From: Bacteroidota bacterium
Lineage (GTDB): Bacteria; Bacteroidota; Bacteroidia; Palsa-948
Length of the DNA stretch: 64,000 bases
Assembly: GCA_023251675.1 (NCBI GenBank)
Contig: JAHEYJ010000001.1
Location: 1,671 to 65,670, forward strand
Reading direction: 5' to 3'
Part shown: positions 8,075 to 41,352 of the stretch, in pieces
How positions within the stretch are numbered: the first letter of the stretch is position 1
Layout: the number at the start of each line of letters is the position of its first letter
Notes under the pieces: model-generated
What the model saw: only the letters and a program-made list of their open reading frames with translations
What the model was told of the DNA's origin: nothing
The model's database searches: none
Translations under genes and position numbers: made by a program

Positions 8075-10042
8075 CTATTTGTTCTGAGCGCCGGCTGCAA
8101 TTTCTAATTCGTTAATTGTATTTTCTTCAACAGCAATTCCCTTTTCTTTCGCAGTGAGCAGATCCTGTAACGCTTCGGCATATTTACCCATCCCTTTATA
8201 AGCAAGCGAACGGTTGGTGTAAGCGCCGTAATTATCGGGTTTCAGTTCAAGGGATCTTGTAAAATCATTCACCGCTTCCTGGTATTTACCGCTCATGCTT
8301 AAAATAATTCCGCGGTTGTTGTACGCCTGTCCGTTATCCGAAGCAAACTCAATGGCTTTATTGATATCACTGAGCGCTTCCGGAAGATGATCGCTTTTTC
8401 CGTATGCTTCGGAACGGGCATAATAGCCTTCCCCGCTTTTGGGCTGCAGCTCAATGATCTTTGTAAAATCTTTTATCGCGTTTTCAAAATCATTTCTCTG
8501 AACATACATGGTGCCGCGGCTGAGGTAATTGGTATAATCATCGGGATGAAGTCGTATCTCTTCGGAGAAGGATCGGATGGCTTCATCGGTTTGCTTCAGG
8601 CGCTGGTGTACCAAACCTTTGTTGCGCCACGCTTTCGGATATTTTGGTTTCAGTTCTACCAATGAAATAAAATCTTTCAGCGCTTCTTCGTTACGGCTTG
8701 AATCCGTAAGAACAGCACCGCGGTTGGTATATAAAATGGCTGCTTTGTATCCGTTGTCAATGGCATCGGTATAAAGCCGAATGCTGTCGTGCCACACCTT
8801 TGTCCGCTGAAAGGTCAGGTAACAGAAAAACACCAGGTAAACAGCGGCAGCGGCAGTTGCAGTTTTATTTGTTATAAAAGGCGAAAAATAATACGCCGCA
8901 ATAAAAAATAATCCGATTGATGGAATGTATGTGTAGCGGTCGGCATACAAGGCATCACCGATGGGAAGGAGCTGAAGAACAAGAACAATGGTGATGAGAA
9001 AAAAGGCCGTTCCGAATAAGACCACTTTCGAATCACGAAAATATTTCCAAATGAGGAACGCAATAGCAAGCAGAACGGCCGGACTTATATAAACCCAGAC
9101 CGTATTGATCTTATCGTTGGTTTCCGGGTAAGGATAAAAGCAAGAAAGATTAATCGGAAGAATAATCTTGTGCAGATACGTCATCAAAGCATAGCAGGAA
9201 AAAAGGATCCGTTCGTAAAAAGGAAAATACTGGAACGTCTGCATGGCGCCGGCTTTCCCCTGGACTTTAATGGCAAGAATTCCGAAGGCAACGGCAAGGA
9301 CGAAGAAAGGGATTTTTTCCAAGATGGTTTTCTTTGTGAGCTTCCGGTTCAACAGAAAATCGACAGCAAAAAAAGTTACAGGAAGCACAACCGCCTGTGC
9401 TTTTGAAAGAAGCGCAAACAGAAAAAGTAAAAGAATCACTCCGACGCGGGCAAGGGACAGTGAACTTTTTTCTTCTTTCAGCGAAGGAGTAGAGATGTAA
9501 ACATACAGCCCCCATAAAAAGAAAAATCCATAGAGCACATCCTTTCGTTCCGCGATCCACACAACGGATTCCACGTGAAGCGGATGAATCCCGAACAACA
9601 AAGCGGTGAGAAATGCGGCCCACCCCCAACCCCTCCCCAAGGGAGGGGGGATTAATTTCTGCACGATCAAAAAAACCAGAAGGGTATTCAGTAAGTGCAA
9701 CAATAAATTTACAAGATGATAGCCGAAAGGATTTAGAGCAAAAAATTTATAATCCAGCATGTAGGAGAACATGGTAAGCGGCTGGTAGTTGCCTACAAAC
9801 TGTTCGGAGAAAATAGTTTTCAGGTTCTCGGCATTGATCGCTTTGATCACCGGATTTTCCAGTACGTACTGTGTATCGTCAAGGTTAACGAATTTGTTTT
9901 GAAGAGAAGGGAAGAAAACAAGAAAGGTAATTGCAAGAACAGCGGGAAGAAAATATTTTTCATATCCTGAAATAAATTCTATTTCAGGTTGGAGTTGTTT
10001 CGAAATGACTTTGGCTTTCTGCTTTGGCTTTGCCATGAGCAA
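8075..10042 (-). CDS. multi-pass membrane protein with C-terminal TPR repeats (TMTC/DUF1736-like)
   Basis: 655 aa. Many N-terminal TM helices. Motif ALLFGIHPLHVESVVWIAERKDVL typical of the DUF1736 loop. Tandem TPRs at the C-terminus. Contains an in-frame GC hairpin encoding PPPLGRGWGW. Confidence 0.7.
   Translation of the reverse strand: MLMAKPKQKAKVISKQLQPEIEFISGYEKYFLPAVLAITFLVFFPSLQNKFVNLDDTQYVLENPVIKAINAENLKTIFSEQFVGNYQPLTMFSYMLDYKFFALNPFGYHLVNLLLHLLNTLLVFLIVQKLIPPPLGRGWGWAAFLTALLFGIHPLHVESVVWIAERKDVLYGFFFLWGLYVYISTPSLKEEKSSLSLARVGVILLLFLFALLSKAQAVVLPVTFFAVDFLLNRKLTKKTILEKIPFFVLAVAFGILAIKVQGKAGAMQTFQYFPFYERILFSCYALMTYLHKIILPINLSCFYPYPETNDKINTVWVYISPAVLLAIAFLIWKYFRDSKVVLFGTAFFLITIVLVLQLLPIGDALYADRYTYIPSIGLFFIAAYYFSPFITNKTATAAAAVYLVFFCYLTFQRTKVWHDSIRLYTDAIDNGYKAAILYTNRGAVLTDSSRNEEALKDFISLVELKPKYPKAWRNKGLVHQRLKQTDEAIRSFSEEIRLHPDDYTNYLSRGTMYVQRNDFENAIKDFTKIIELQPKSGEGYYARSEAYGKSDHLPEALSDINKAIEFASDNGQAYNNRGIILSMSGKYQEAVNDFTRSLELKPDNYGAYTNRSLAYKGMGKYAEALQDLLTAKEKGIAVEENTINELEIAAGAQNK
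9632..9650. repeat. GC-rich perfect hairpin (CCCCTCCC-caa-GGGAGGGG) embedded in-frame in a CDS; encodes PLGRG
   Basis: 8-bp perfect stem seen directly. Same family as the hairpins at 27924 and 28327. Confidence 0.7.
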
Positions 10043-10051
10043 AAATAAGGA

Positions 10052-10381
10052 CTAAACCTTTTCTACAAACACAGCCGTTCCGTAGCAAAGGACCTCCGTA
10101 ACGCCTTGGGCCACTTCATTTGCATCGTAGCGCGCTCCGATGATCGCATTTGCTCCGATTTTGTCAGCATGATTTGCCATAATTTCGAATGCTTCTTCAC
10201 GTGCTTTTTCACAAAGTTCAGTATATAGAGAAATATTCCCTCCTACAAGGGTTTGAAAACTGGCGCCGATGGTTCCGAATACGCTTCGTGAACGCACGGT
10301 GATGCCGCGAACAACGCCGAGATTTTTAGTGATTCGGAATCCATCCAGTGTAAAGGCAGTGGTAATGTTGGTTCTTTCCAT
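10052..10381 (-). CDS. YbjQ/UPF0145 (DUF74) family protein
   Basis: 109 aa. Conserved …[11 protein letters not shown]… pattern of UPF0145. Confidence 0.75.
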
Positions 10382-25124: not shown

Positions 25125-28100
25125 ATGAGGACGAATTACGAATGCAAATATTTTCTTGCACTAACTTCTTTTTTCCTTATTTCCCTTTTTCCGTATTCCT
25201 CTTCGGCACAGCGCAATAATTTTCAATCCTATTCTCTCGACCAGGGACTTCCGCAGGCCACCATTTATTGCATCATTCAGGATAACCGCGGCTACTTGTG
25301 GCTTGGTACCGATGGAGGTGGGCTTTGCCGTTTTGACGGGATCCATTTCAAAACCTATGGAAAAAGTGATGGTTTCAACGGGCAAAATATCCGGTCGTTG
25401 CTCCAGGACAGCAAAGGAAGGATATGGGCCGGAACAAAAGATGAAGGCATTGTGGTTTATGACGGCAATAAATTTGTTTCTATAGGAAAGAAAAATGGTT
25501 TGGCGGGCAGCGCCATCCTTTGCCTGCACGAAGATAAAGACGGAACGGTGTGGGCAGGCACGGATGATGGCGGCGTAAACAAGATCACGCCTGTTTTTAA
25601 AGGGAAAAGTTCCGGTCAAACGGTAGTTTCGGCAGTGAAAGATTCCTTTGTAGTAGAAGTTTTTGACGAGAACAAAGGGCTCAGCAGCAATTCCGTATTA
25701 GACATTCACCAGGATAAGGACGGGCATATCTGGCTGGCTACTTTTGGAGGAATAAATGTATTAACGCCCGGCAAAGATTCTGTTTCTATTGATCATTTAC
25801 GCGGCGGAAGAGAAATTCCCAGCGACCAGATCACTTCTGTTACCGAAGAAAAAAATGGAGCTTTGTGGTTTGGCACGTACGATGGAGGCATTTTCCGAAT
25901 CGCTCCCAAAAACGATACTAAAAATTTTAAACTGGATATTCTTTCCCGAAAAGTTACCTCTTTCAGCCAGGAAAACGGGTTCAACGCAAAAACCATCTGG
26001 CGGATTTTTACTTCCGATAATAATGAGCTCTGGTTTGCTTCTGTTGAAGACGGGCTTATCCGCTGTAGAAATACAGCCGCTTCCGATACCGGGAAAAAAG
26101 TATTCGAAAAATATACAGATAAGGAAGGACTGCCGTGCAACCAGATGCTGTGCATCTTTGAAGACAAAGAAAAAAATATCTGGATCGGAACCAACGGTGG
26201 GGGGCTTTGCAAGTTCAACGGAGATATGTTTGCTCATTATTCTGAAAAAGACGGGTTGCCTAGTAACAGCGTTCAGGGAATTGACATGGATTCATCCGGA
26301 ACGCTCTGGTTCGGGACCAGCGGCGGCGGATTGGTTAAAATGGATCTGCGATCGGGCGCACCGGTTTGCAATAACTTTTCGATAAAAGATGGTTTATCGG
26401 GAAACACCATTCTTTCAGTATCTGCCGGGAAGGTCATTCATAATCAGAACCTATGGTCCGCGGTTTCAAACGCCGGTATTTCAAAATACGATGGCAAAAC
26501 CTTTCTCAATTTTTCGGAGCGTGACGGCTTGCTGAACAACAGCGTGTACAGCATTTTCGTTGATAAGAACGGGATCGTTTGGATCGGCAGCAAGGATGGC
26601 ATCAGCCGTTTCGACGGATCGAAATTCCTGAACATCACCATGGAGACCATGAAAATTCCGGATAAAGATGTGAATGCCATCATCCAGGATGAAAAAGGAA
26701 ATCTATGGTTCGGTACCGGCGGCGGACTGGCCCGGTATTCAGGAGACGGAGCCATTACCACGTTTGATGAAGCGGAAGGATTGATGCACAAGGAAATAAA
26801 AGCGCTTGCTGAAGATCCGTTCGGAAATATCTGGATCGGGACCAACAACGGCGGGCTTTACCGTTTCAATGTTTTTACGGATGATTCGATAAAAATAAAA
26901 CTGATCGCTGACGATAGCCTGCTGAGTTCTAATTCCGTTCGCGCCATTATTTTCCTGGATGAAAAAACCACCGGCAACAAGGGAAAAGAAATGGTGGTAG
27001 GGACAGATAAGGGAATTGATAAAATAATTTTTGACGACAAAGGAAAGATCCTGAAGATCAGGAATTATAATGCTACCGACGGATTCATCGGCGTGGAGTG
27101 CAATGACAATGCCATGTACCGCGATGACCAGGGAAATATCTGGATCGGAACGGTGAAAGGGCTGACACGGTTTAATCCCTCAGCGGAAGTGCAGAATACG
27201 AACGCTCCGCAGGTTCATATTACCGATATAAAACTTTTCTTCAAAGATGTGGATTGGAGCTCGCGTGCTGATTCTGTTCTTCCCTGGTTTTCGCTTCCCA
27301 CTTCTTTGCAGCTTTCGTATACGGATAACCACCTGACGTTTGACTATGCCGCCATTTCACTTGGCAATTCACAAAAAATAAAATACCGTTACATGCTGGA
27401 AGGCGCAGAAGAAGAATGGTCGCCCGACCGGAAGGAAACATCGGTAACTTTTTCAGGGCTTTCTCCCGGCAAATACACTTTCAAGGTGATCGCGTCAGGA
27501 GCCAACGGAGTTTGGAATACGCAGCCTGCGGAATTTTATTTCACGATTAACCCTCCCTGGTACCGTTCCATGTTGGCTTACATTATTTACGCGATTGTTT
27601 TAATGGGCGGAACCTATTCCTATTCCAAGATCCGGGAAAGGGCGCTCATCCACGAAAAAAAGATCCTTGAAGAAAAAGTAGTGGAACGCACCGCCGAAGT
27701 GGTGAAACAGAAAGAAGAACTCGAACAGCAAAAACATGTGATCGAGGAAAAGAACAAAGACATCACCGACAGCATCAACTACGCGGAAAAGATCCAGCGT
27801 GCTATTTTGCCCGATCTTGCAAAAATTAAAAAGGCTTTGCCCCAGTCCTTTATTTTATTTGAGCCCCGCGACATTGTCAGCGGAGATTTCTTTTGGTATG
27901 TGGAAGTGAAAGCCCCACCCCGGCCCTCCCCATTGGGGAGGGGGATTGATGACCCCGACTATTTCACTGCAGATTCATCACTTTATCCTGCACTTAAGTC
28001 AAGGGCGGAAGAATTTAGGGATCATCCTACCGAAGCGGAAAATATTGCATGGGAACTTTTAAAAGGAAATAATATTGGTTTTCATATAAGGCGTCAACAC

Positions 28101-28973
28101 ATCATTGGAAAATATATAGTGGATTTTGTAAACATTAAAACAAAAACAGTTATAGAAATAGACGGCGATATTCATGATTATCAGAAAGAAGAAGATGAGC
28201 AGCGAACGAGCTGGCTGAAGAAGCATGGATTTGAAGTTATTCGTTTCAGAAACGAGGAAGTGATAGCAGCGTCAGATGGTTTTGCAGAAAAAGTAATAAA
28301 GGTATTGCAGGAACGCGAACAAAAAGTCCTCCCCATTGGGGAGGATTTAGGAGGGGCTTCTTCCATTTATCTTTTATCCGCGGCGGATTGTACGGGGCAC
28401 GGCGTTCCGGGCGCGTTCATGAGCATGATCAACACGTCGCTGCTCAACGAAGCGGTGAACCAGAAAAAAATTTACCAGCCGAACGAAATACTGGATGAAG
28501 CACGAAGAGGGATCATTACCGCGCTGAAGCAGACGGGCGCTTCCGGCGAACAAAAGGACGGAATGGATGTAAGTATCATTTCGCTTGAGATGAACGGCGA
28601 CACGTGCAAACTTCAATACGCCGGAGCCAACAACTCGCTCTATATAATAAGGAAGGGCGAAACATCGGAACTGGAAGAAATAGATCCCGACCCGATGCCC
28701 GTTGCCATCAGCGACCGTACGGGCGAGTTCACCAACAATGTGATCGACCTTCAGAAGGGCGACACCGTTTATATTTTCACCGACGGTTATGCCGATCAGT
28801 TCGGCGGGCCGAAAGGGAAAAAATTCAAGTATTCCAATTTCAAAAAACTCCTGCTTTCCATCCAGGATAAAAATATGGATGAACAGCACGACATCCTCAA
28901 GAAAACGATGGACGACTGGAAAGGCAACCTCGAACAGATTGACGACATACTGGTAATGGGTGTTAGGATATAG
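25125..28973 (+). CDS. large sensor protein: signal peptide, two-component-regulator beta-propeller repeats, Y_Y_Y domain, TM, coiled coil, PP2C/SpoIIE phosphatase domain carrying an in-frame DUF559 insertion
   Basis: 1282 aa. Repeated …LWxGTxxGGLxxFDG… propeller units. SpoIIE-type C-terminus (…SGDFFWY…, ADCTGHGVPGA, C-terminal IDDILVMGVRI). The homologous paralogue on the minus strand at 58674 lacks ~145 aa between the WY and ADCTGHG motifs. Confidence 0.8.
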   Translation: MRTNYECKYFLALTSFFLISLFPYSSSAQRNNFQSYSLDQGLPQATIYCIIQDNRGYLWLGTDGGGLCRFDGIHFKTYGKSDGFNGQNIRSLLQDSKGRIWAGTKDEGIVVYDGNKFVSIGKKNGLAGSAILCLHEDKDGTVWAGTDDGGVNKITPVFKGKSSGQTVVSAVKDSFVVEVFDENKGLSSNSVLDIHQDKDGHIWLATFGGINVLTPGKDSVSIDHLRGGREIPSDQITSVTEEKNGALWFGTYDGGIFRIAPKNDTKNFKLDILSRKVTSFSQENGFNAKTIWRIFTSDNNELWFASVEDGLIRCRNTAASDTGKKVFEKYTDKEGLPCNQMLCIFEDKEKNIWIGTNGGGLCKFNGDMFAHYSEKDGLPSNSVQGIDMDSSGTLWFGTSGGGLVKMDLRSGAPVCNNFSIKDGLSGNTILSVSAGKVIHNQNLWSAVSNAGISKYDGKTFLNFSERDGLLNNSVYSIFVDKNGIVWIGSKDGISRFDGSKFLNITMETMKIPDKDVNAIIQDEKGNLWFGTGGGLARYSGDGAITTFDEAEGLMHKEIKALAEDPFGNIWIGTNNGGLYRFNVFTDDSIKIKLIADDSLLSSNSVRAIIFLDEKTTGNKGKEMVVGTDKGIDKIIFDDKGKILKIRNYNATDGFIGVECNDNAMYRDDQGNIWIGTVKGLTRFNPSAEVQNTNAPQVHITDIKLFFKDVDWSSRADSVLPWFSLPTSLQLSYTDNHLTFDYAAISLGNSQKIKYRYMLEGAEEEWSPDRKETSVTFSGLSPGKYTFKVIASGANGVWNTQPAEFYFTINPPWYRSMLAYIIYAIVLMGGTYSYSKIRERALIHEKKILEEKVVERTAEVVKQKEELEQQKHVIEEKNKDITDSINYAEKIQRAILPDLAKIKKALPQSFILFEPRDIVSGDFFWYVEVKAPPRPSPLGRGIDDPDYFTADSSLYPALKSRAEEFRDHPTEAENIAWELLKGNNIGFHIRRQHIIGKYIVDFVNIKTKTVIEIDGDIHDYQKEEDEQRTSWLKKHGFEVIRFRNEEVIAASDGFAEKVIKVLQEREQKVLPIGEDLGGASSIYLLSAADCTGHGVPGAFMSMINTSLLNEAVNQKKIYQPNEILDEARRGIITALKQTGASGEQKDGMDVSIISLEMNGDTCKLQYAGANNSLYIIRKGETSELEEIDPDPMPVAISDRTGEFTNNVIDLQKGDTVYIFTDGYADQFGGPKGKKFKYSNFKKLLLSIQDKNMDEQHDILKKTMDDWKGNLEQIDDILVMGVRI
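27924..27942. repeat. GC hairpin (left flank of the DUF559 insertion); encodes SPLGRG
   Basis: 8-bp perfect stem with a 3-nt loop. Confidence 0.7.
28327..28345. repeat. GC hairpin (right flank of the DUF559 insertion); encodes LPIGED
   Basis: 8-bp perfect stem with a 3-nt loop. Confidence 0.7.
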
Positions 28974-28975
28974 CA
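28938..28975. repeat. direct repeat R1 = the last 11 codons plus stop of the SpoIIE-domain gene (IDDILVMGVRI*)
   Basis: ATTGACGACATACTGGTAATGGGTGTTAGGATATAGCA. Re-occurs at 29033-29070 (2-3 mismatches) and in degenerate form at 29893-29925. Confidence 0.8.
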
Positions 28976-29032
28976 CCGAAGAAAAGATTTTGCAGAAGCA
29001 GCATAGGAAATCCCGATGTGGCTTCCGTCGGG

Positions 29033-29070
29033 ATTGACGACATACTGGTGATGGGAGTCAGGATATAGCA
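29033..29070. repeat. direct repeat R2 (pseudo C-terminus IDDILVMGVRI*), preceded by hairpin AATCCCGA…TCGGGATT at 29009-29035
   Basis: Direct sequence comparison with R1. Confidence 0.8.
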
Positions 29071-29307
29071 TTGAAAAGGTGTACGGCAAATTTTGAAAGG
29101 ATGGCCACTTCGAGTTCCAGCGCTTCGCTGGAGTATCGAGAAGTGACAGAGGAAGGTTCTCGACCTGCCTGCCCATGCCTTGCTGCAGGCGGGCGGCAAG
29201 GCAGGTACGCGCTGCAAAGCCATCGCTACTCGAACTGACAATTTTGAAATGAGCCGTTAAATAAAATACATTCGCTGAAAATAAATTTCATCCCTTAATT
29301 TTCAAAC

Positions 29308-29880
29308 ATGAAAAAAATAATTGTTACCGTCATCACCACGCTGGTTGTTCTCGCAGTATTATTTACCGCGTACATCTATTCCGGCATGTATGATGTGAGC
29401 CAGCTCACGCCGCACAACGGGCTTACCAAATGGATGATACGCACCACCAAACACAAATCAATAAACAGCAGGCTGAAAGACATCCAGGTGCCTGCGCTGA
29501 ACGACACGGCGAACTTTGTCGAGGGCTTTGAGCATTACAACGAGATGTGCGTGATGTGTCACGGTGCGCCGGGCATTGAACCGATGGAAATGGCGAAAGG
29601 GCTTTATCCCAGGCCGCCGAAATTCTATAAAGCGGACGACCAGCCCGATCCCGATGAATCGTTCTGGATCATCAAGAACGGAATCAAGATGACGAGCATG
29701 CCGGGGTACGGCCCCACGCACGACGACAAAAAGATCTGGGCGATCACCGATTTCTTTTTGAATAAAATGAGCAAGATGACGCCCGAAGAATACCAGGCGT
29801 GGATAAAAAAATATTCTGAGAAAAGTGAAACGCCGGAGAGTAAAAGTTCAGAGGTGAAAGAAGAAGGAGACAAGGATTGA
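29308..29880 (+). CDS. membrane-anchored mono-heme cytochrome c
   Basis: 190 aa. N-terminal TM. Heme motif CVMCH. Confidence 0.75.
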   Translation: MKKIIVTVITTLVVLAVLFTAYIYSGMYDVSQLTPHNGLTKWMIRTTKHKSINSRLKDIQVPALNDTANFVEGFEHYNEMCVMCHGAPGIEPMEMAKGLYPRPPKFYKADDQPDPDESFWIIKNGIKMTSMPGYGPTHDDKKIWAITDFFLNKMSKMTPEEYQAWIKKYSEKSETPESKSSEVKEEGDKD

Positions 29881-29892
29881 TTTTTTGGGAGA

Positions 29893-29925
29893 ACGACATG
29901 CTGGTAATGTGCGTTTGGATATAGC
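29893..29925. repeat. direct repeat R3, a degenerate third copy of the SpoIIE gene end (FWENDMLVMCVWI*)
   Basis: ACGACATGCTGGTAATGTGCGTTTGGATATAGC, about 75% identical to R1. Confidence 0.6.
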
Positions 29926-29998
29926 GATGAAAGGTATCCCTGATTTTTATTCATCTACAAATTAAAATTCCGATAACTTAGCGGAATAAATATTTTTT

Positions 29999-31108
29999 AT
30001 GGCAAAAAAATCAAACATCGTTACGCCGCAGGCGCTGGAGTTTCTGAAAACGTATATCAACACGCCGTCGCCCACCGGCTTTGAATGCAAACTTCCGCAC
30101 GGGCAGAAGACCGGCCAGCAGGTTTGGCTGGAGTACATGAAACCTTACGTTGATGAATTCATTGTGGATACCTACGGCACAGCGGTCGGCATCATCAATC
30201 CGAAAGAAGAATATAAAATCGTGATCGAAGCGCATGCCGATGAGATTTCATGGTTCGTGCATTACATAACCAAAGAAGGTTTCATTTATCTCGTCCGCAA
30301 CGGCGGCAGCGACCACCAGATCGCGCCCAGCAAACGCGTGAACATCCACACCGAAAAAGGAATTGTGAAAGCGGTGTTCGGCTGGCCTGCCATCCATGTG
30401 CGTGAGCCCGGCAAAGAAGAACATCCTTCGGTAAAAAATATTTTTTTGGATTGCGGCGTGAAGTCAGACAAAGAGCTTGCAAAACTCGGCGTGCATGTGG
30501 GCTGTGTGGTAACGTACGAAGATGAGTTCATGATACTGAATAATACTTTTTACACAGGCCGTGCATTGGATAACCGCGCAGGCGGATTCATGATCGCGCA
30601 GGTGGCGCGGCTGATCAAAGAAAATAAAACAAAACTTCCGTTCGGGTTGTACATTGTGAATTCCGTGCAGGAAGAAGTCGGGCTGAACGGAGCCAAGATG
30701 ATCGCCAACCGCATCAGTCCCGCCGCCGCCATCATCACCGATGTAACGCACGATACACACACGCCGATGATGAACAAAGTCCACCAGGGCGATGTCACCT
30801 GCGGAAAAGGGCCAAGCGTAACGTACGGACCGGCCGTTCATAATAATCTTCTCAACCAGATCATCCAGACCGCCAAGAAAAATAAAATTCCGATTCAGCG
30901 TGAAGTGGCTTCGCGTTCCACCGGAACAGATACAGATGCATTTGCGTATTCCGGCAGCGGAATTGCTTCGGCATTGATCTCGCTTCCGCTGCGCTATATG
31001 CACACAACGGTGGAGTCAGTTCATAAAGATGATGTGGAAAGCGTCATCAAACTTATTTACGAAACACTGAAAGGAATAAAAAGAAATCTGAAGTTTGGAT
31101 ATTTGTAG
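29999..31108 (+). CDS. M42 family aminopeptidase (FrvX/CelM-like)
   Basis: 369 aa. Conserved HADEI and metal-ligand regions. Confidence 0.8.
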   Translation: MAKKSNIVTPQALEFLKTYINTPSPTGFECKLPHGQKTGQQVWLEYMKPYVDEFIVDTYGTAVGIINPKEEYKIVIEAHADEISWFVHYITKEGFIYLVRNGGSDHQIAPSKRVNIHTEKGIVKAVFGWPAIHVREPGKEEHPSVKNIFLDCGVKSDKELAKLGVHVGCVVTYEDEFMILNNTFYTGRALDNRAGGFMIAQVARLIKENKTKLPFGLYIVNSVQEEVGLNGAKMIANRISPAAAIITDVTHDTHTPMMNKVHQGDVTCGKGPSVTYGPAVHNNLLNQIIQTAKKNKIPIQREVASRSTGTDTDAFAYSGSGIASALISLPLRYMHTTVESVHKDDVESVIKLIYETLKGIKRNLKFGYL

Positions 31109-38337: not shown

Positions 38338-41300
38338 ATGCTTTCCAAACGATTTGTATTTCTTTTTGGCATTTGCATTCTGCATTCTGCATTCTGCATT
38401 CTGAATTGTTTTTCCCAATCCTATAATTTCAAGAACTATTCTGTCGGGCAGGGGCTTCCGTTTGTGCAGGTCTATGCCATTTACCAGGACAGCAAAGGTA
38501 ATTTGTGGACGGGCGGTTACGGCGGGCTCAGCCGGTTCGATGGAAAAACGTTCACCAACTATACGCCTAAGAATGGTTTGGCTGATCACTGGGTAACCTC
38601 CATTGCTGAAGATGCACAGGGAAATATATGGATCGGAACCATCAGCGGCCTTACCCGGTATGACGGAAAAACCTTTTCAACGTTTACCAAATCGCATGGG
38701 CTGGCAGGCGATTACATCAACTCACTGACACGGGATAAAAACGGAAACCTTTGGATCGCAACCACTGAAGGCATTACCATTTACGATGGAAAAACGTTTT
38801 CTTCCATCAAAAAGAAAAACGGATTAGCCGCCGATAATGTTTCCCTGATCTATGCCGATAAGAATGGGAATATCTGGATGAATACAGCAAGCGGAGTCGG
38901 CAAGATCGTTTTCACAAATAAAAACCCGCAGGACCGTTCGTTTGATAATTACACCATCATGAACAGTGTGTATGATTCTTCCATCACTTCCATCACTGAA
39001 GATGGAATTGGAAATATCTGGTTCGGGACAAACAGCGGCGCTGTAAAATACGACGGGGTGAATTTCAAAACCTATACTTCCAAAAACGGTTTGCTGGATA
39101 ATTCCATCCAGGCCGTGATGAAAAGCGAAAATAATAATGAGATCTGGATCGGAACCGGCAAAGGGCTGAATAAGATCTCTGAAAACGGTGTGGTGGAATC
39201 GTACCGGGTGAGCGAAACACAGAACGGAAATAAGATCGGTAAACTTTATAAAGATACGGAGGGAAACCTATGGCTCGGAACGTCCAACGGACTGTATCGT
39301 TTCCGCGATCCTTCGTTTGCAACCTATTCGGATAAAGACGGACTGCTGAACCCCTTCGTGTTCCCGATCTTCCGCGATCATAAAAAAAATCTTTGGGTGG
39401 GTACGCTGGAGAATGGATTTTACAAATACGATAACAGGGAATTTAAAAGCTTTACAGAAAAAGACGGGCTCATCGGAACAGAAATGTATTCGGGCATGGA
39501 AGATAAGGATGGATTTATTTTAATGGGAACCAATAAAGGATTATCGGTTTATAACGGGAATGGTTTCAAAAATTTTCACGGAAAAAAAGACGGGCTTCGC
39601 GGCGATTCGGTTACCGCCGTTATCCAGGACCGGAAAGGAAGGATCTGGCTGGGCGGAAATAAAGGCGGAACGATCTGGAACGGCAGCCGCTTCCGCACGT
39701 TTGATCTTCAATCGGATGCAGGCAACTTTGACGTATGGTATTTATTTGAAGACAGCAAAGGATCTATCTGGATGGGAACTTATCTGGGCGGCATTTTCCG
39801 GTACAACCCGAAGAACGATATGGGATCCACGGAAAAGGCCATTGAAGACATGACCAAAAAACTTAACCTGAAAAGTAAAACGTATTTTTCGATTTGCGAG
39901 GACAGGGATGGAATCATATACATGGGAAGTTTTGACGGCCTGTATATTTACAATCCATCAACAGAAAAAGTTTCTACTATAACAGAAAAAAACGGATTGA
40001 GCTGCGATCTGATTTATGTCATGGCCTTTGATTCAGCCTACGAGAACTTATATATCGGTACGAACCAGGGCGTAAACAAATTCAATGCAACGGAATTTAA
40101 CCGTACCGGAAAAATCATCCTGAAACAATACGGCATTGAAGAAGGGTTCAGCAGCCTGGAAACCAACTCGAACGGGGTCTGGCGTGATATGGACGGAACA
40201 TTCTGGTTCGGCACGGTGAACGGGCTCATTCATTTCAATCCCTATCTCGTTCCGCACAATTCTACAGAAGCAAAGGTCAGTATTAAAAATATCCGGATCT
40301 TTTATAACGATACCGTTCTTTCCGATAACGCGGAGCTTCCTTATTACCTCAATAATATTTCCTTTGAATACATCGGCATCTGTCTCACGAATCCGGAAAA
40401 AGTACGGTACAAGTATATGCTTCAGGGACTGGATAAGATGTGGTCGCCGGAAACACAGGAAACCAGCGTCCACTTTCCCAATCTTCAGCCGGGCAAATAT
40501 GTTTTTAAAATAATGGCCTGCAACAACGAAGGCGTATGGAGCAAAGAACCGGTGACTTTTTCATTTACGATCACACCGCCGGTCTGGAAGACCTGGTGGT
40601 TCAGGATCTCCATGAGCATTTCTCTTATTATCCTGATTGGGATTTTTATTCGGGTGCGGGTAGATGCAATACGAAAGAAGGAGGCGGAAAAACTTTCGCA
40701 TGAGATCGAGCTGGCCAATAACGAGCTCAAAGCACTTCGGGCGCAGATGGATCCTCATTTCATTTTCAATTCACTTACTTCCATCCAGAGTTTCATTATG
40801 GCAAAAGACGAAGAGTCGGCGCTTCGCTACCTGAACAAATTTGCCAAGCTCATGCGCATGATTCTTTCCAACAGTGAAAAATCATCCATCACCCTTCGTG
40901 AAGAACTGGACTCCCTGAAACTTTACCTTGAACTGGAAAGGCTTAGATGGGACAACAAGTTCGATTATTTCGTGGAGATCGATGACAGCGTTGAAATGGA
41001 TGATCACAAGATCCCGACGATGCTGATTCAGCCTTATGTAGAGAATGCCGTTCTGCACGGAGTGGTCCCTAAAACCAACGGCAAGGGAAGGATCGATATT
41101 CGCCTGTCTCAAACGGATAAACATATAATATGTACGATCCTGGACAATGGAATCGGCAGAAAAAGATCGCAGGAGTTGCGCACCGATTCCAACAAGTCGC
41201 TTCATGAATCTATGGGAATGAAAATTACCAGTGAGCGGCTCGAAGTATTGAATAAAATGCATCGGTCAGAACTAAGCGCCAAAATCATGGACCTGTATGA

Positions 41301-41352
41301 TGAAAAAGGAGAAGCCACGGGAACAAAAGTGGAAATATTCATTCCGATTTAA
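38338..41352 (+). CDS. LytS-type sensor histidine kinase with periplasmic two-component-regulator propeller repeats and Y_Y_Y domain
   Basis: 1004 aa. Propeller repeats, TM, His_kinase (…DPHFIFNSL…) and HATPase_c (NAVLHG…). The signal peptide is encoded by (GCATTCT)x4. Confidence 0.85.
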   Translation: MLSKRFVFLFGICILHSAFCILNCFSQSYNFKNYSVGQGLPFVQVYAIYQDSKGNLWTGGYGGLSRFDGKTFTNYTPKNGLADHWVTSIAEDAQGNIWIGTISGLTRYDGKTFSTFTKSHGLAGDYINSLTRDKNGNLWIATTEGITIYDGKTFSSIKKKNGLAADNVSLIYADKNGNIWMNTASGVGKIVFTNKNPQDRSFDNYTIMNSVYDSSITSITEDGIGNIWFGTNSGAVKYDGVNFKTYTSKNGLLDNSIQAVMKSENNNEIWIGTGKGLNKISENGVVESYRVSETQNGNKIGKLYKDTEGNLWLGTSNGLYRFRDPSFATYSDKDGLLNPFVFPIFRDHKKNLWVGTLENGFYKYDNREFKSFTEKDGLIGTEMYSGMEDKDGFILMGTNKGLSVYNGNGFKNFHGKKDGLRGDSVTAVIQDRKGRIWLGGNKGGTIWNGSRFRTFDLQSDAGNFDVWYLFEDSKGSIWMGTYLGGIFRYNPKNDMGSTEKAIEDMTKKLNLKSKTYFSICEDRDGIIYMGSFDGLYIYNPSTEKVSTITEKNGLSCDLIYVMAFDSAYENLYIGTNQGVNKFNATEFNRTGKIILKQYGIEEGFSSLETNSNGVWRDMDGTFWFGTVNGLIHFNPYLVPHNSTEAKVSIKNIRIFYNDTVLSDNAELPYYLNNISFEYIGICLTNPEKVRYKYMLQGLDKMWSPETQETSVHFPNLQPGKYVFKIMACNNEGVWSKEPVTFSFTITPPVWKTWWFRISMSISLIILIGIFIRVRVDAIRKKEAEKLSHEIELANNELKALRAQMDPHFIFNSLTSIQSFIMAKDEESALRYLNKFAKLMRMILSNSEKSSITLREELDSLKLYLELERLRWDNKFDYFVEIDDSVEMDDHKIPTMLIQPYVENAVLHGVVPKTNGKGRIDIRLSQTDKHIICTILDNGIGRKRSQELRTDSNKSLHESMGMKITSERLEVLNKMHRSELSAKIMDLYDEKGEATGTKVEIFIPI
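38375..38402. repeat. (GCATTCT)x4 perfect heptanucleotide tandem repeat in the signal-peptide codons of the sensor kinase
   Basis: Direct observation. Encodes ILHSAFCILHSAFCILN. Confidence 0.85.

Follow-up and report, generated by a model that had tools for sequence, protein, structure and literature searches.

Why should one gene appear to end three times? In a 64-kb stretch of a 325-kb contig from a Bacteroidota metagenome (JAHEYJ010000001.1; the stretch is here called the window), the last codons of a gene for a SpoIIE/PP2C-family sensor phosphatase occur in three direct copies, one in use and two downstream, on either side of a cytochrome c gene. The answer we favor, at a probability of roughly 45%, is that the three tails are successive ends of a single SpoIIE gene, left by two insertions that were guided by homology, duplicated the gene end and needed no dedicated integrase. 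Coordinates are positions in the window, and the tail copies are called R1, R2 and R3 in 5′ to 3′ order:

25125..28973, + strand: SpoIIE/PP2C-family sensor phosphatase gene, the target gene of the repeats (open reading frame (ORF) of 1282 amino acids (aa); Pfam)
28937-28980, + strand: R1, the tail in use and the reference copy; encodes IDDILVMGVRI and a stop (28971-28973), with about 7 nucleotides (nt) of trailing sequence
29032-29075, + strand: R2, the putatively recently orphaned tail copy; 89% identity to R1; encodes IDDILVMGVRI and a stop
29888-29931, + strand: R3, the original tail, now decayed; 75% identity to R1; encodes ENDMLVMCVWI and a stop

A repeat search of the window returned a single family, in which the SpoIIE gene tail occurs as three direct copies of 44 nt. 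The original prediction, made from the sequence alone, had described three direct copies of this gene end, the third of them degenerate and placed after the cytochrome c stop, and the repeat family, the translations and the position and identity of R3 all agree with it. The tail motif can be written as the pattern ATHGAYGAYATHYTNGTNATHGGNGTNMGNRTNTRR. A degenerate 34-nt pattern matches only R1 and R2 in the 64 kb (0 expected, from 100 shuffles), and R3 is recovered by blastn-short at E=1e-4. About 75 SpoIIE homologues end in ...EQ[IV]DD[IV]LVIG[VI][RK][IVL] and a stop, and the SpoIIE orthologues (71-79% identity) all end in ...EQIDDILVIGVR[IV] and a stop. Because the repeated sequence is the conserved end of the SpoIIE family, the repeats are copies of a gene tail and not a dispersed repeat, which answers the earlier concern that the 38-mer might be widespread.

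The triple arrangement recurs in two other assemblies at 99.9% identity. On a contig from another sample (L002, 248-280, corresponding to window 29036-29068), R2 has one A>G difference, by which IDDILVMGVRI becomes IDDVLVMGVRI. This polymorphism is consistent with a sequence that is now unconstrained.

The way in which the tails differ carries the argument. R2 departs from R1 by three substitutions (G>A, A>T and C>T, read from R2 to R1), each at a third codon position and each synonymous, and R3 by eight, none of them synonymous. Extra tails also lie at the same gene in relatives (L numbers), and the counts for working against distal tails are:

Window, R1/R2: 3 differences, 3 synonymous
L092, R1/R2: 5 differences, 4 synonymous
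L100, R1/R3: 6 differences, 5 synonymous
L102, R1/R2′: 10 differences, 10 synonymous
Pooled, four species: 24 differences, 22 synonymous

If a local duplication had left one copy constrained and the other neutral, about 36% of the differences would be synonymous; under this null, the excess of 22/24 has P = 2e-8. Two contrasts do look neutral, namely R3 of the window (0/8 synonymous) and R2 against R2′ in L102 (1/3). Since 22 of 24 differences are synonymous, simple copy-and-decay is excluded and the tails came from other alleles: their ancestry is imported and synonymously diverged. By their codon pattern, the distal tails were still part of a coding sequence not long ago, in some other allele or lineage, and DNA with such a tail, diverged but functional, was brought together with the resident one. 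The practical lesson is that orphan tails with purely synonymous differences indicate imported DNA over local duplication.

Two insertions of different age at one gene end

The orthologous locus was compared in about 15 related lineages (71-88% amino-acid identity, with 6-8 kb flanks), in which the order is WD40 - SpoIIE - ... - M42 - 300-aa ORF - GH3. What lies between SpoIIE and the M42 peptidase gene varies:

L093, L094, L101: SpoIIE, 58-72 nt, then M42 directly; an empty site with a single gene end
L090/L099: a TPR-adenylate/guanylate cyclase gene between SpoIIE and M42
L123: a glycosyltransferase gene between SpoIIE and M42
L096, L097, L104, L121, L122: other neighbors; single tails
Window (and L086), L092/95/98, L100, L102/103/114: extra tail copies

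Besides the window, only four other lineages carry extra tails, and there are none at 12 more distant SpoIIE gene ends. The slot downstream of the SpoIIE gene is thus variable, with different single genes across species. In L090 it holds a 607-aa TPR + guanylate/adenylate cyclase gene (8374-10197) that starts 2 nt after the SpoIIE stop, and in L123 a family-2 glycosyltransferase gene on the reverse strand (9565-10269); neither comes with a tail duplication. A synteny search of a genome collection found no close relative with the arrangement of the window; the closest M42 gene was only 82% identical and had another upstream gene.

In the window, the slot and its surroundings contain the following:

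29069..29098, + strand: first part of IG′, the putative duplicated spacer, after R2; ends in the first of two AATTTTGAAA repeats
29240..29307, + strand: second part of IG′, upstream of cytochrome c; begins with the second AATTTTGAAA repeat
29308..29880, + strand: cytochrome c gene, the inserted cargo; 190 aa, N-terminal membrane anchor, CxxCH; Pfam PF13442 (Cytochrome_CBB3), E=5e-13
29926..29998, + strand: native SpoIIE-M42 intergenic region, from alignments to relatives' M42-upstream spacers
29999..31108, + strand: M42-family peptidase gene, the conserved downstream neighbor and synteny anchor

Cytochrome c has been relocated to this site. Outside this lineage, the nearest homologues (P0002-P0005, 79-86% identity) sit in a conserved neighborhood of another kind (SHMT - DUF179 - small ORF - cytochrome c - H+-PPase). 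Homology between the window and these loci is confined to the cytochrome c ORF; about 10 nt past its stop may be related too, as read from the alignment by eye. The original prediction was that cytochrome c had been inserted here and that relatives lacking it would have a single gene end. Both parts hold, given the empty sites in L093, L094 and L101 and the homologues in their other neighborhood. One relative, L086, shares the order cytochrome c - tail remnant - M42, with cytochrome c 91% and M42 92% identical, so the insertion predates the split between the window and L086. It had also been asked whether relatives show the whole triple arrangement. Only parts of it are shared, cytochrome c-R3-M42 in L086 and R1-hairpin-R2 in three other species, and these common segments mean that parts of the arrangement are old. 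Relative to the window, L086 has an insertion of ~84 nt with (CTATACC)n tandem repeats just upstream of the M42 start (~760-840).

The 73-nt spacer between R3 and M42 aligns with the M42-upstream spacers of L100, L101, L093, L086 and L123 (0/1000 shuffles each), and the L093 alignment spans nearly the whole spacer, from 5 nt past its SpoIIE stop. The tail remnant of L086 reaches further upstream into native coding sequence (W..KGNLGQIDDLLVTGMRR and a stop), of which ~30 nt have been deleted at R3 of the window. On the evidence of these alignments, R3 is the original end of the gene, now displaced, and the spacer downstream of it is the native one of this locus: the native spacer follows R3, the L086 remnant extends upstream, and the changes in R3 are all non-synonymous. 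The two copies of R3, in the window and L086, differ by roughly 30%. This divergence and the 0/8 synonymous changes fit neutral decay since before the L086 split.

The region upstream of cytochrome c appears to be a second copy of the same spacer. Its 58 nt align with the native M42-upstream spacer of L100 (31/38 identical in a local alignment; 1/1000 shuffles), and a sigma70-like match at 29244-29272 adds weakly to this. Similarity between IG′ and the window's own R3-M42 spacer was not significant, nor was that between the region after R2 and the corresponding region of L092 (11/300 shuffles). A promoter region was probably duplicated to give the second part of IG′. With moderate support, the duplication probably took in the tail and the intergenic region together (~125 nt), so that cytochrome c would stand behind a copy of the M42-upstream region.

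The history can be told as follows. The ancestral order was the SpoIIE tail, a spacer of ~60 nt and M42. In a first, old event, a segment of ~0.6 kb with cytochrome c entered ~57 nt before the SpoIIE stop, bringing with it a second copy of the tail and, probably, of the intergenic region. Because the insert brought these copies, the phosphatase gene stayed intact and cytochrome c probably came to lie behind the M42-upstream copy. The original tail, R3, was orphaned ahead of M42 and has since decayed. R2 would have been the working tail after this insertion and orphaned only recently, since it has 0 non-synonymous changes against 8 in the older R3. In a second, recent event, R2 was presumably orphaned by a [tail-spacer-hairpin] module (R1 + 57 nt) that arrived ahead of it. 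Regeneration of the target gene's 3′ end, as predicted, agrees with a functional tail supplied by the copy arriving with the insert. The reading of the triple repeat as one integration signature does not stand: there were two insertion events of different age at one gene's tail, each with a duplicate tail, and not one element with three att sites.

The hairpin and the tail-spacer-hairpin unit

Between R1 and R2 lie two further features:

28974..29008, + strand: spacer from the R1 stop to the hairpin; homologous to the L092 spacer (~74% identity), 14 nt long in L100 and absent in L102
29009..29035, + strand: conserved hairpin; AATCCCGA (29009-29016), an 11-nt loop and TCGGGATT (29028-29035)

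The 3′ arm of the hairpin overlaps ATT, the first codon of R2. (The hairpin had been predicted to abut R2, as it does; its loop had been given as 10 nt.) The unit working tail - (0-34 nt) - hairpin - orphan tail also occurs in L092/95/98, L100 and L102/103/114. It is present once in L092/95/98, and in L100 twice in tandem with a 75-nt period, followed by M42. In all four species, the window included, the 3′ arm is fused at the identical nucleotide to ATT/GTT-GAY-GAY, and the junction of hairpin and tail can be written as the pattern AATCCYGA-N(6-36)-TCRGGATTGAYGAY.

Across species, 97.8% of the cells in the stem alignment are paired and the loops are unrelated. In L102, compensatory changes preserve the pairing at two positions of the stem (C-G to U-A and U-A to C-G). 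The two hairpin copies there are identical at 28/28 positions, next to an orphan gene-end part with ~10% substitutions and two deletions. At the decay rate of the orphan tail ~5-6 changes would be expected, by a hand estimate, and 0 changes are unlikely. The hairpin is under constraint. From its place and shape, it may be a terminator-like 3′ structure of the phosphatase transcript, or a recombination site.

Several simpler origins were tried and rejected. Readthrough, bypass or a small ORF over R2 is ruled out by inconsistent frames, with R1-to-R2 offsets of 95, 117, 75 and 64 nt in the four species. The spacer and hairpin do not derive from the TPR-cyclase gene of L090, whose end has no hairpin. 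Nor is the hairpin a native terminator kept at relatives' loci, since it is absent in L093, L094, L101, L122 and L123. When tested as an intrinsic terminator, it has the GC-rich stem, but GACGAC follows in place of a U-tract and the terminator scan made no call. In a neighbor-joining tree built from the last 200 aa, which is star-like, the hairpin-bearing loci do not cluster, a result compatible with gain as well as with loss of the hairpin module.

Two relatives show what else has happened at such units. In L102 (8686-9397), a UPF0175 (92 aa)/DUF3368 PIN-like (151 aa) toxin-antitoxin pair, identified by Pfam, lies between two units of ~140-150 nt, each consisting of ~75 nt of gene end, the hairpin and the tail. 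Immediately ahead of the antitoxin is a -7 box of the Bacteroidetes type (TATCTTTG). L100 (8568-8753) has three tandem tails at a period of 75 nt, kept apart by two 39-nt spacers that contain the hairpin and are almost identical, and there is no cargo. Its middle tail (R2) is chimeric, matching R3 in its 5′ part and R1 in its 3′ part, which is what unequal crossing-over between repeats already in place would produce. The hairpin loop of L100 contains TTTTCGAG, which is found again after the last stop codon.

Homology-guided insertion and its rivals

How did the second and third tails arrive? In the reading that we prefer, incoming DNA with its own synonymously diverged tail would have recombined within or beside the resident tail, in a Campbell-type, homology-guided duplicative insertion whose donor would be the orthologous locus of related strains. 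Once two tails are present, they could promote unequal exchange, duplication and cargo capture, of which the L100 triplication and the L102 toxin-antitoxin pair may be examples. The boundaries of the duplications vary: R2 spans 36-44 nt, the duplication in L102 is ~140-150 nt long and extends ~75 nt upstream, and R3 homology begins 57 nt or more ahead of the stop and takes in the intergenic region as well. No integrase or transposase, and no tyrosine or serine recombinase, was found among the proteins of the 64-kb window or at the ~15 orthologous loci. Scans of viral contigs with the hairpin-tail pattern and with the tail pattern gave 0 matches each. We favor homology-guided insertion because of these variable boundaries, the use of one orthologous gene only, the lack of a recombinase and the empty viral scans.

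Several points weigh against it. The junction between GGATT and GAYGAY falls at the exact same nucleotide in four species, as a site-specific recombinase would leave it; the hairpin shows compensatory changes, and both L102 copies of it are the same. This invariant junction, with the conservation of the hairpin, is the strongest counter-argument and favors a dedicated site-specific system. Homology-guided transfer alone does not explain the origin of the first hairpin-tail junction or why every species has a ‘fresh’ distal tail. Neither a donor allele nor a circular intermediate was seen. The similarity of the region upstream of cytochrome c to a native spacer was significant in only 1/6 comparisons, and the order of events is read solely from the degree of decay of 36-nt sequences.

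Site-specific integration, the explanation offered in the original prediction, is accordingly a serious rival, if in our judgment an unlikely one. In this account, the SpoIIE tail is an attB site, the attP site of an element mimics the tail, and the hairpin is the arm on the element's side of the crossover. R1-spacer-hairpin-R2 would then be a miniature decayed element that lacks an integrase, and the cytochrome c segment a second decayed element added by tandem accretion. Direct repeats of the target's 3′ end bracketing the inserts, vacant sites in relatives, a constant hairpin-tail junction and a conserved hairpin with compensatory changes are what such an element would leave. Synonymous divergence is also the pattern of an element-borne tail mimic, and there are precedents in the Dehalococcoides ssrA islands (PMC3146451) and in cis-mobilizable elements (CIMEs) and microCIMEs of streptococci (PMC7563491). 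Against this, besides the missing recombinase and the empty viral scans, the R1-R2 ‘elements’ measure only 28-80 nt in all four species and none has cargo. The crossover is fixed between hairpin and ATT in four species but not for the cytochrome c or the L102 toxin-antitoxin insertions, both of which lie at other junctions with longer duplications (the R3 extension of L086; A′ in L102). Paralogous SpoIIE tails, moreover, are equally conserved yet unoccupied. Of the predicted integration, the insertion, the empty sites and the regenerated gene end stand; no integrase was found in the window or at the ~15 loci, and the boundary is constant at the hairpin-tail junction but not at the cargo insertions.

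The duplications could also have arisen by local replication errors, through fork stalling and template switching or slippage at the hairpin, with cytochrome c copied from the same chromosome and no horizontal input. Template switching typically gives templated insertions with flanking duplications of 100-150 nt, and the two cargo events are alike in this respect (inserts of ~0.6-0.7 kb, flanking duplications of ~125-150 nt). The L100 triplication resembles unequal exchange, and R3 shares the synonymous states GTA and GTT with R1. However, local errors predict identical copies followed by neutral decay, whereas 22/24 of the differences between orphan and working tails are synonymous (P = 2e-8), and clear microhomology is not visible at the cytochrome c junctions. 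We consider this explanation improbable.

It is tempting to speculate that [tail-spacer-hairpin] is itself a tiny non-autonomous module. It would enter before the ATT that follows the Q codon and begins IDD, 36 nt before the stop, and would be phenotypically silent because it carries its own replacement tail. A recombinase that recognizes the hairpin would act in trans, and the resulting direct repeats would turn the gene end into a place where single genes, such as cytochrome c, or toxin-antitoxin pairs are captured. This idea is long odds, much as local replication errors are; if true, it would describe a new kind of ‘tail-replacing’ mobile module and a gene-capture platform in Bacteroidota.

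Less probable still is that the hairpin and R2 form a selected cis-acting element, a terminator or 3′ stabilizer with a decoy tail, inherited vertically and repeatedly lost by R1/R2 deletion, with cytochrome c unrelated to it. The hairpin is conserved with compensatory pairs 0-34 nt past the stop codon, AAATCCCGC…GCGGGATTTT stems are ordinary terminators in Sphingobacteriia loci, and in the tree the loci with a hairpin are mixed with the empty ones, a pattern that repeated loss could give. The stem is not followed by a U-tract, however, the terminator scan is silent, no Rfam family matches, and R2 has no consistent frame or start codon for translation. A cis-acting element would explain the hairpin but not the codon-patterned tail, as codon-like constraint on an untranslated copy is left unaccounted for.

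Finally, R2 and R3 might be what is left of SpoIIE paralogues in tandem, or of illegitimate recombination among paralogues, the latter being the alternative offered in the original prediction. This notion is largely refuted. The family does have several paralogues with similar ends, and the window holds a second SpoIIE gene (~58692-60941, minus strand) and a related sensor gene (38338-41352). However, no more than the last 12-20 codons are present, R3 is followed by the intergenic region native to this locus, R2 is truncated at the identical point in four species, and the site is empty in relatives. The other SpoIIE gene of the window ends differently and has no additional tail copy, no examined paralogue has extra tails, and it is the orthologous locus that both the copies and the sequence around them match.

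Other features of the window and comparison with known systems

The putative duplicated spacer IG′ is interrupted by a GC-rich element:

29089-29098 and 29240-29249, + strand: 10-nt direct repeats of AATTTTGAAA, from the repeat search
29099..29239, no strand: GC-rich self-complementary element between the two AATTTTGAAA repeats; 141 nt, GC ~0.6, several hairpins

A GC-rich, self-complementary segment of ~200 nt between direct repeats had been predicted here. The element and its repeats are real and the core is 141 nt; on either strand, its predicted fold is somewhat more stable than those of shuffled sequences (z = -2.6 and -3.1). The Rfam covariance check proposed for it, run at E<=10 over 28700-30100, gave no relevant match for either this element or the hairpin. 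Further copies were absent from the window, 1.2 Mb of related loci, and plasmid and phage collections. Considered as a miniature inverted-repeat transposable element, it is flanked by a 10-nt direct repeat, has only an imperfect 15-nt inverted repeat near its ends, and is single-copy in the window and the 1.2 Mb of related loci. A contig of another assembly (L001) begins inside the element, at 29106; this break may hint at repetition elsewhere in the genome. The structure suggests a small insertion with a 10-bp target duplication.

The SpoIIE gene has Y_Y_Y/Reg_prop sensor domains, a SpoIIE domain and an in-frame DUF559 insert (Pfam). The insert, a DUF559/Vsr-like endonuclease domain (PF04480, E=3e-30; 27885-28364), lies inside the PP2C domain and is bracketed by two copies of a 17-nt palindrome, CCTCCCCATTGGGGAGG, at 27926-27942 and 28328-28344. 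It is also present in the L093 orthologue (P0122), most orthologues (1120-1180 aa) are without it, and in L102 a short piece of it is left at the corresponding place. It has the look of a mobile domain that was inserted in frame.

Type IX secretion system (T9SS) genes lie near the locus. At window 1-7600, a 300-nt direct repeat occurs three times (217-516, 2407-2706 and 4810-5109; 95% and 71% identity). It encodes a T9SS sorting tail (Por_Secre_tail), and a different ORF follows each copy: in two of these ORFs there is an Rhs/YD-like core-end motif (at 1079-1149 and at 3269-3339), and in one there is a Colicin_E5 RNase domain (635-1981). The region looks like an orphan polymorphic-toxin cassette array and is a second case in the genome where repeated gene ends bracket cassettes. 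In an Rfam scan of the whole window, only a tRNA at 62289-62373 passes the gathering score.

Duplicated gene ends are usually read as att-site scars of integrase-bearing islands. Here, several species of uncultured Bacteroidota bear a signature of this kind at a single conserved regulatory gene, with no recombinase in sight. Integron cassettes carry small cargo, a single gene or a toxin-antitoxin pair, have a hairpin-forming boundary site and are mobilized in trans. Small cargo and a boundary hairpin are common to both, and mobilization in trans would explain why no recombinase lies beside the cargo. Yet an attC site is ruled out, since the AATCCCGA/TCGGGATT stem is 8-9 bp long and RYYYAAC/GTTRRRY core sites are absent. 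The window has neither an intI integrase nor an attI site, and the cargo is not placed between tail and hairpin, as a cassette requires. The orphan C-terminal toxin/immunity cassettes of rhs and cdiA recombine at a shared 3′ stretch and displace the old end downstream. An old gene end is displaced here too, and the array at window 1-7600 is of that type, but displaced rhs/cdiA ends encode different toxins, so that function changes, whereas all tails at this locus encode the same peptide. A diversity-generating retroelement is ruled out, as the R2/R1 changes are not adenine-specific and the window proteins include no reverse transcriptase domain.

Integrative elements of the ICESt1/ICESt3 family integrate at the 3′ end of a protein gene (fda) and supply a replacement end, and CIMEs and microCIMEs are decayed, integrase-less derivatives of such elements in streptococci (PMC7563491). 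As in our locus, gene-end direct repeats bracket the insert, the gene stays intact through the incoming tail, relatives have empty sites, and there are tandem stacking and remnants without recombination genes. Here, in contrast, no recombinase is seen, the inserts measure 28-800 nt and not kilobases, the cargo insertions have no fixed crossover, and one orthologous gene is used despite many tail-sharing paralogues. The ssrA islands of Dehalococcoides leave tandem 3′-end direct repeats downstream of their gene, with a conserved motif directly upstream of each repeat, and 15 of them lack an integration module (PMC3146451). That motif lies outside the gene and is comparable to our hairpin. The islands are kilobases long, however, many have a serine recombinase (DsiB), and their repeat is 20 bp of an RNA gene, whereas ours is 36-44 nt of coding sequence with codon-patterned divergence. 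In islands seeded by tycheposons, repeated integration likewise pushes older attachment copies downstream and leaves partial target scars, but the target is a tRNA or tmRNA gene and the elements are well defined and bear integrases (bioRxiv 10.1101/2020.12.28.424599).

Set beside these systems, the locus is best described as the scar of gene-tail duplications at a hotspot of insertion, set apart by the unusually small size of its inserts, by its conserved hairpin and by the lack of any visible recombinase. Should a dedicated mechanism be at work, single genes would be inserted in a new manner that spares the target gene. If not, the locus would be a natural example of a short coding tail that serves as a portable homology anchor between related genomes, one that would allow gene capture and promoter duplication.

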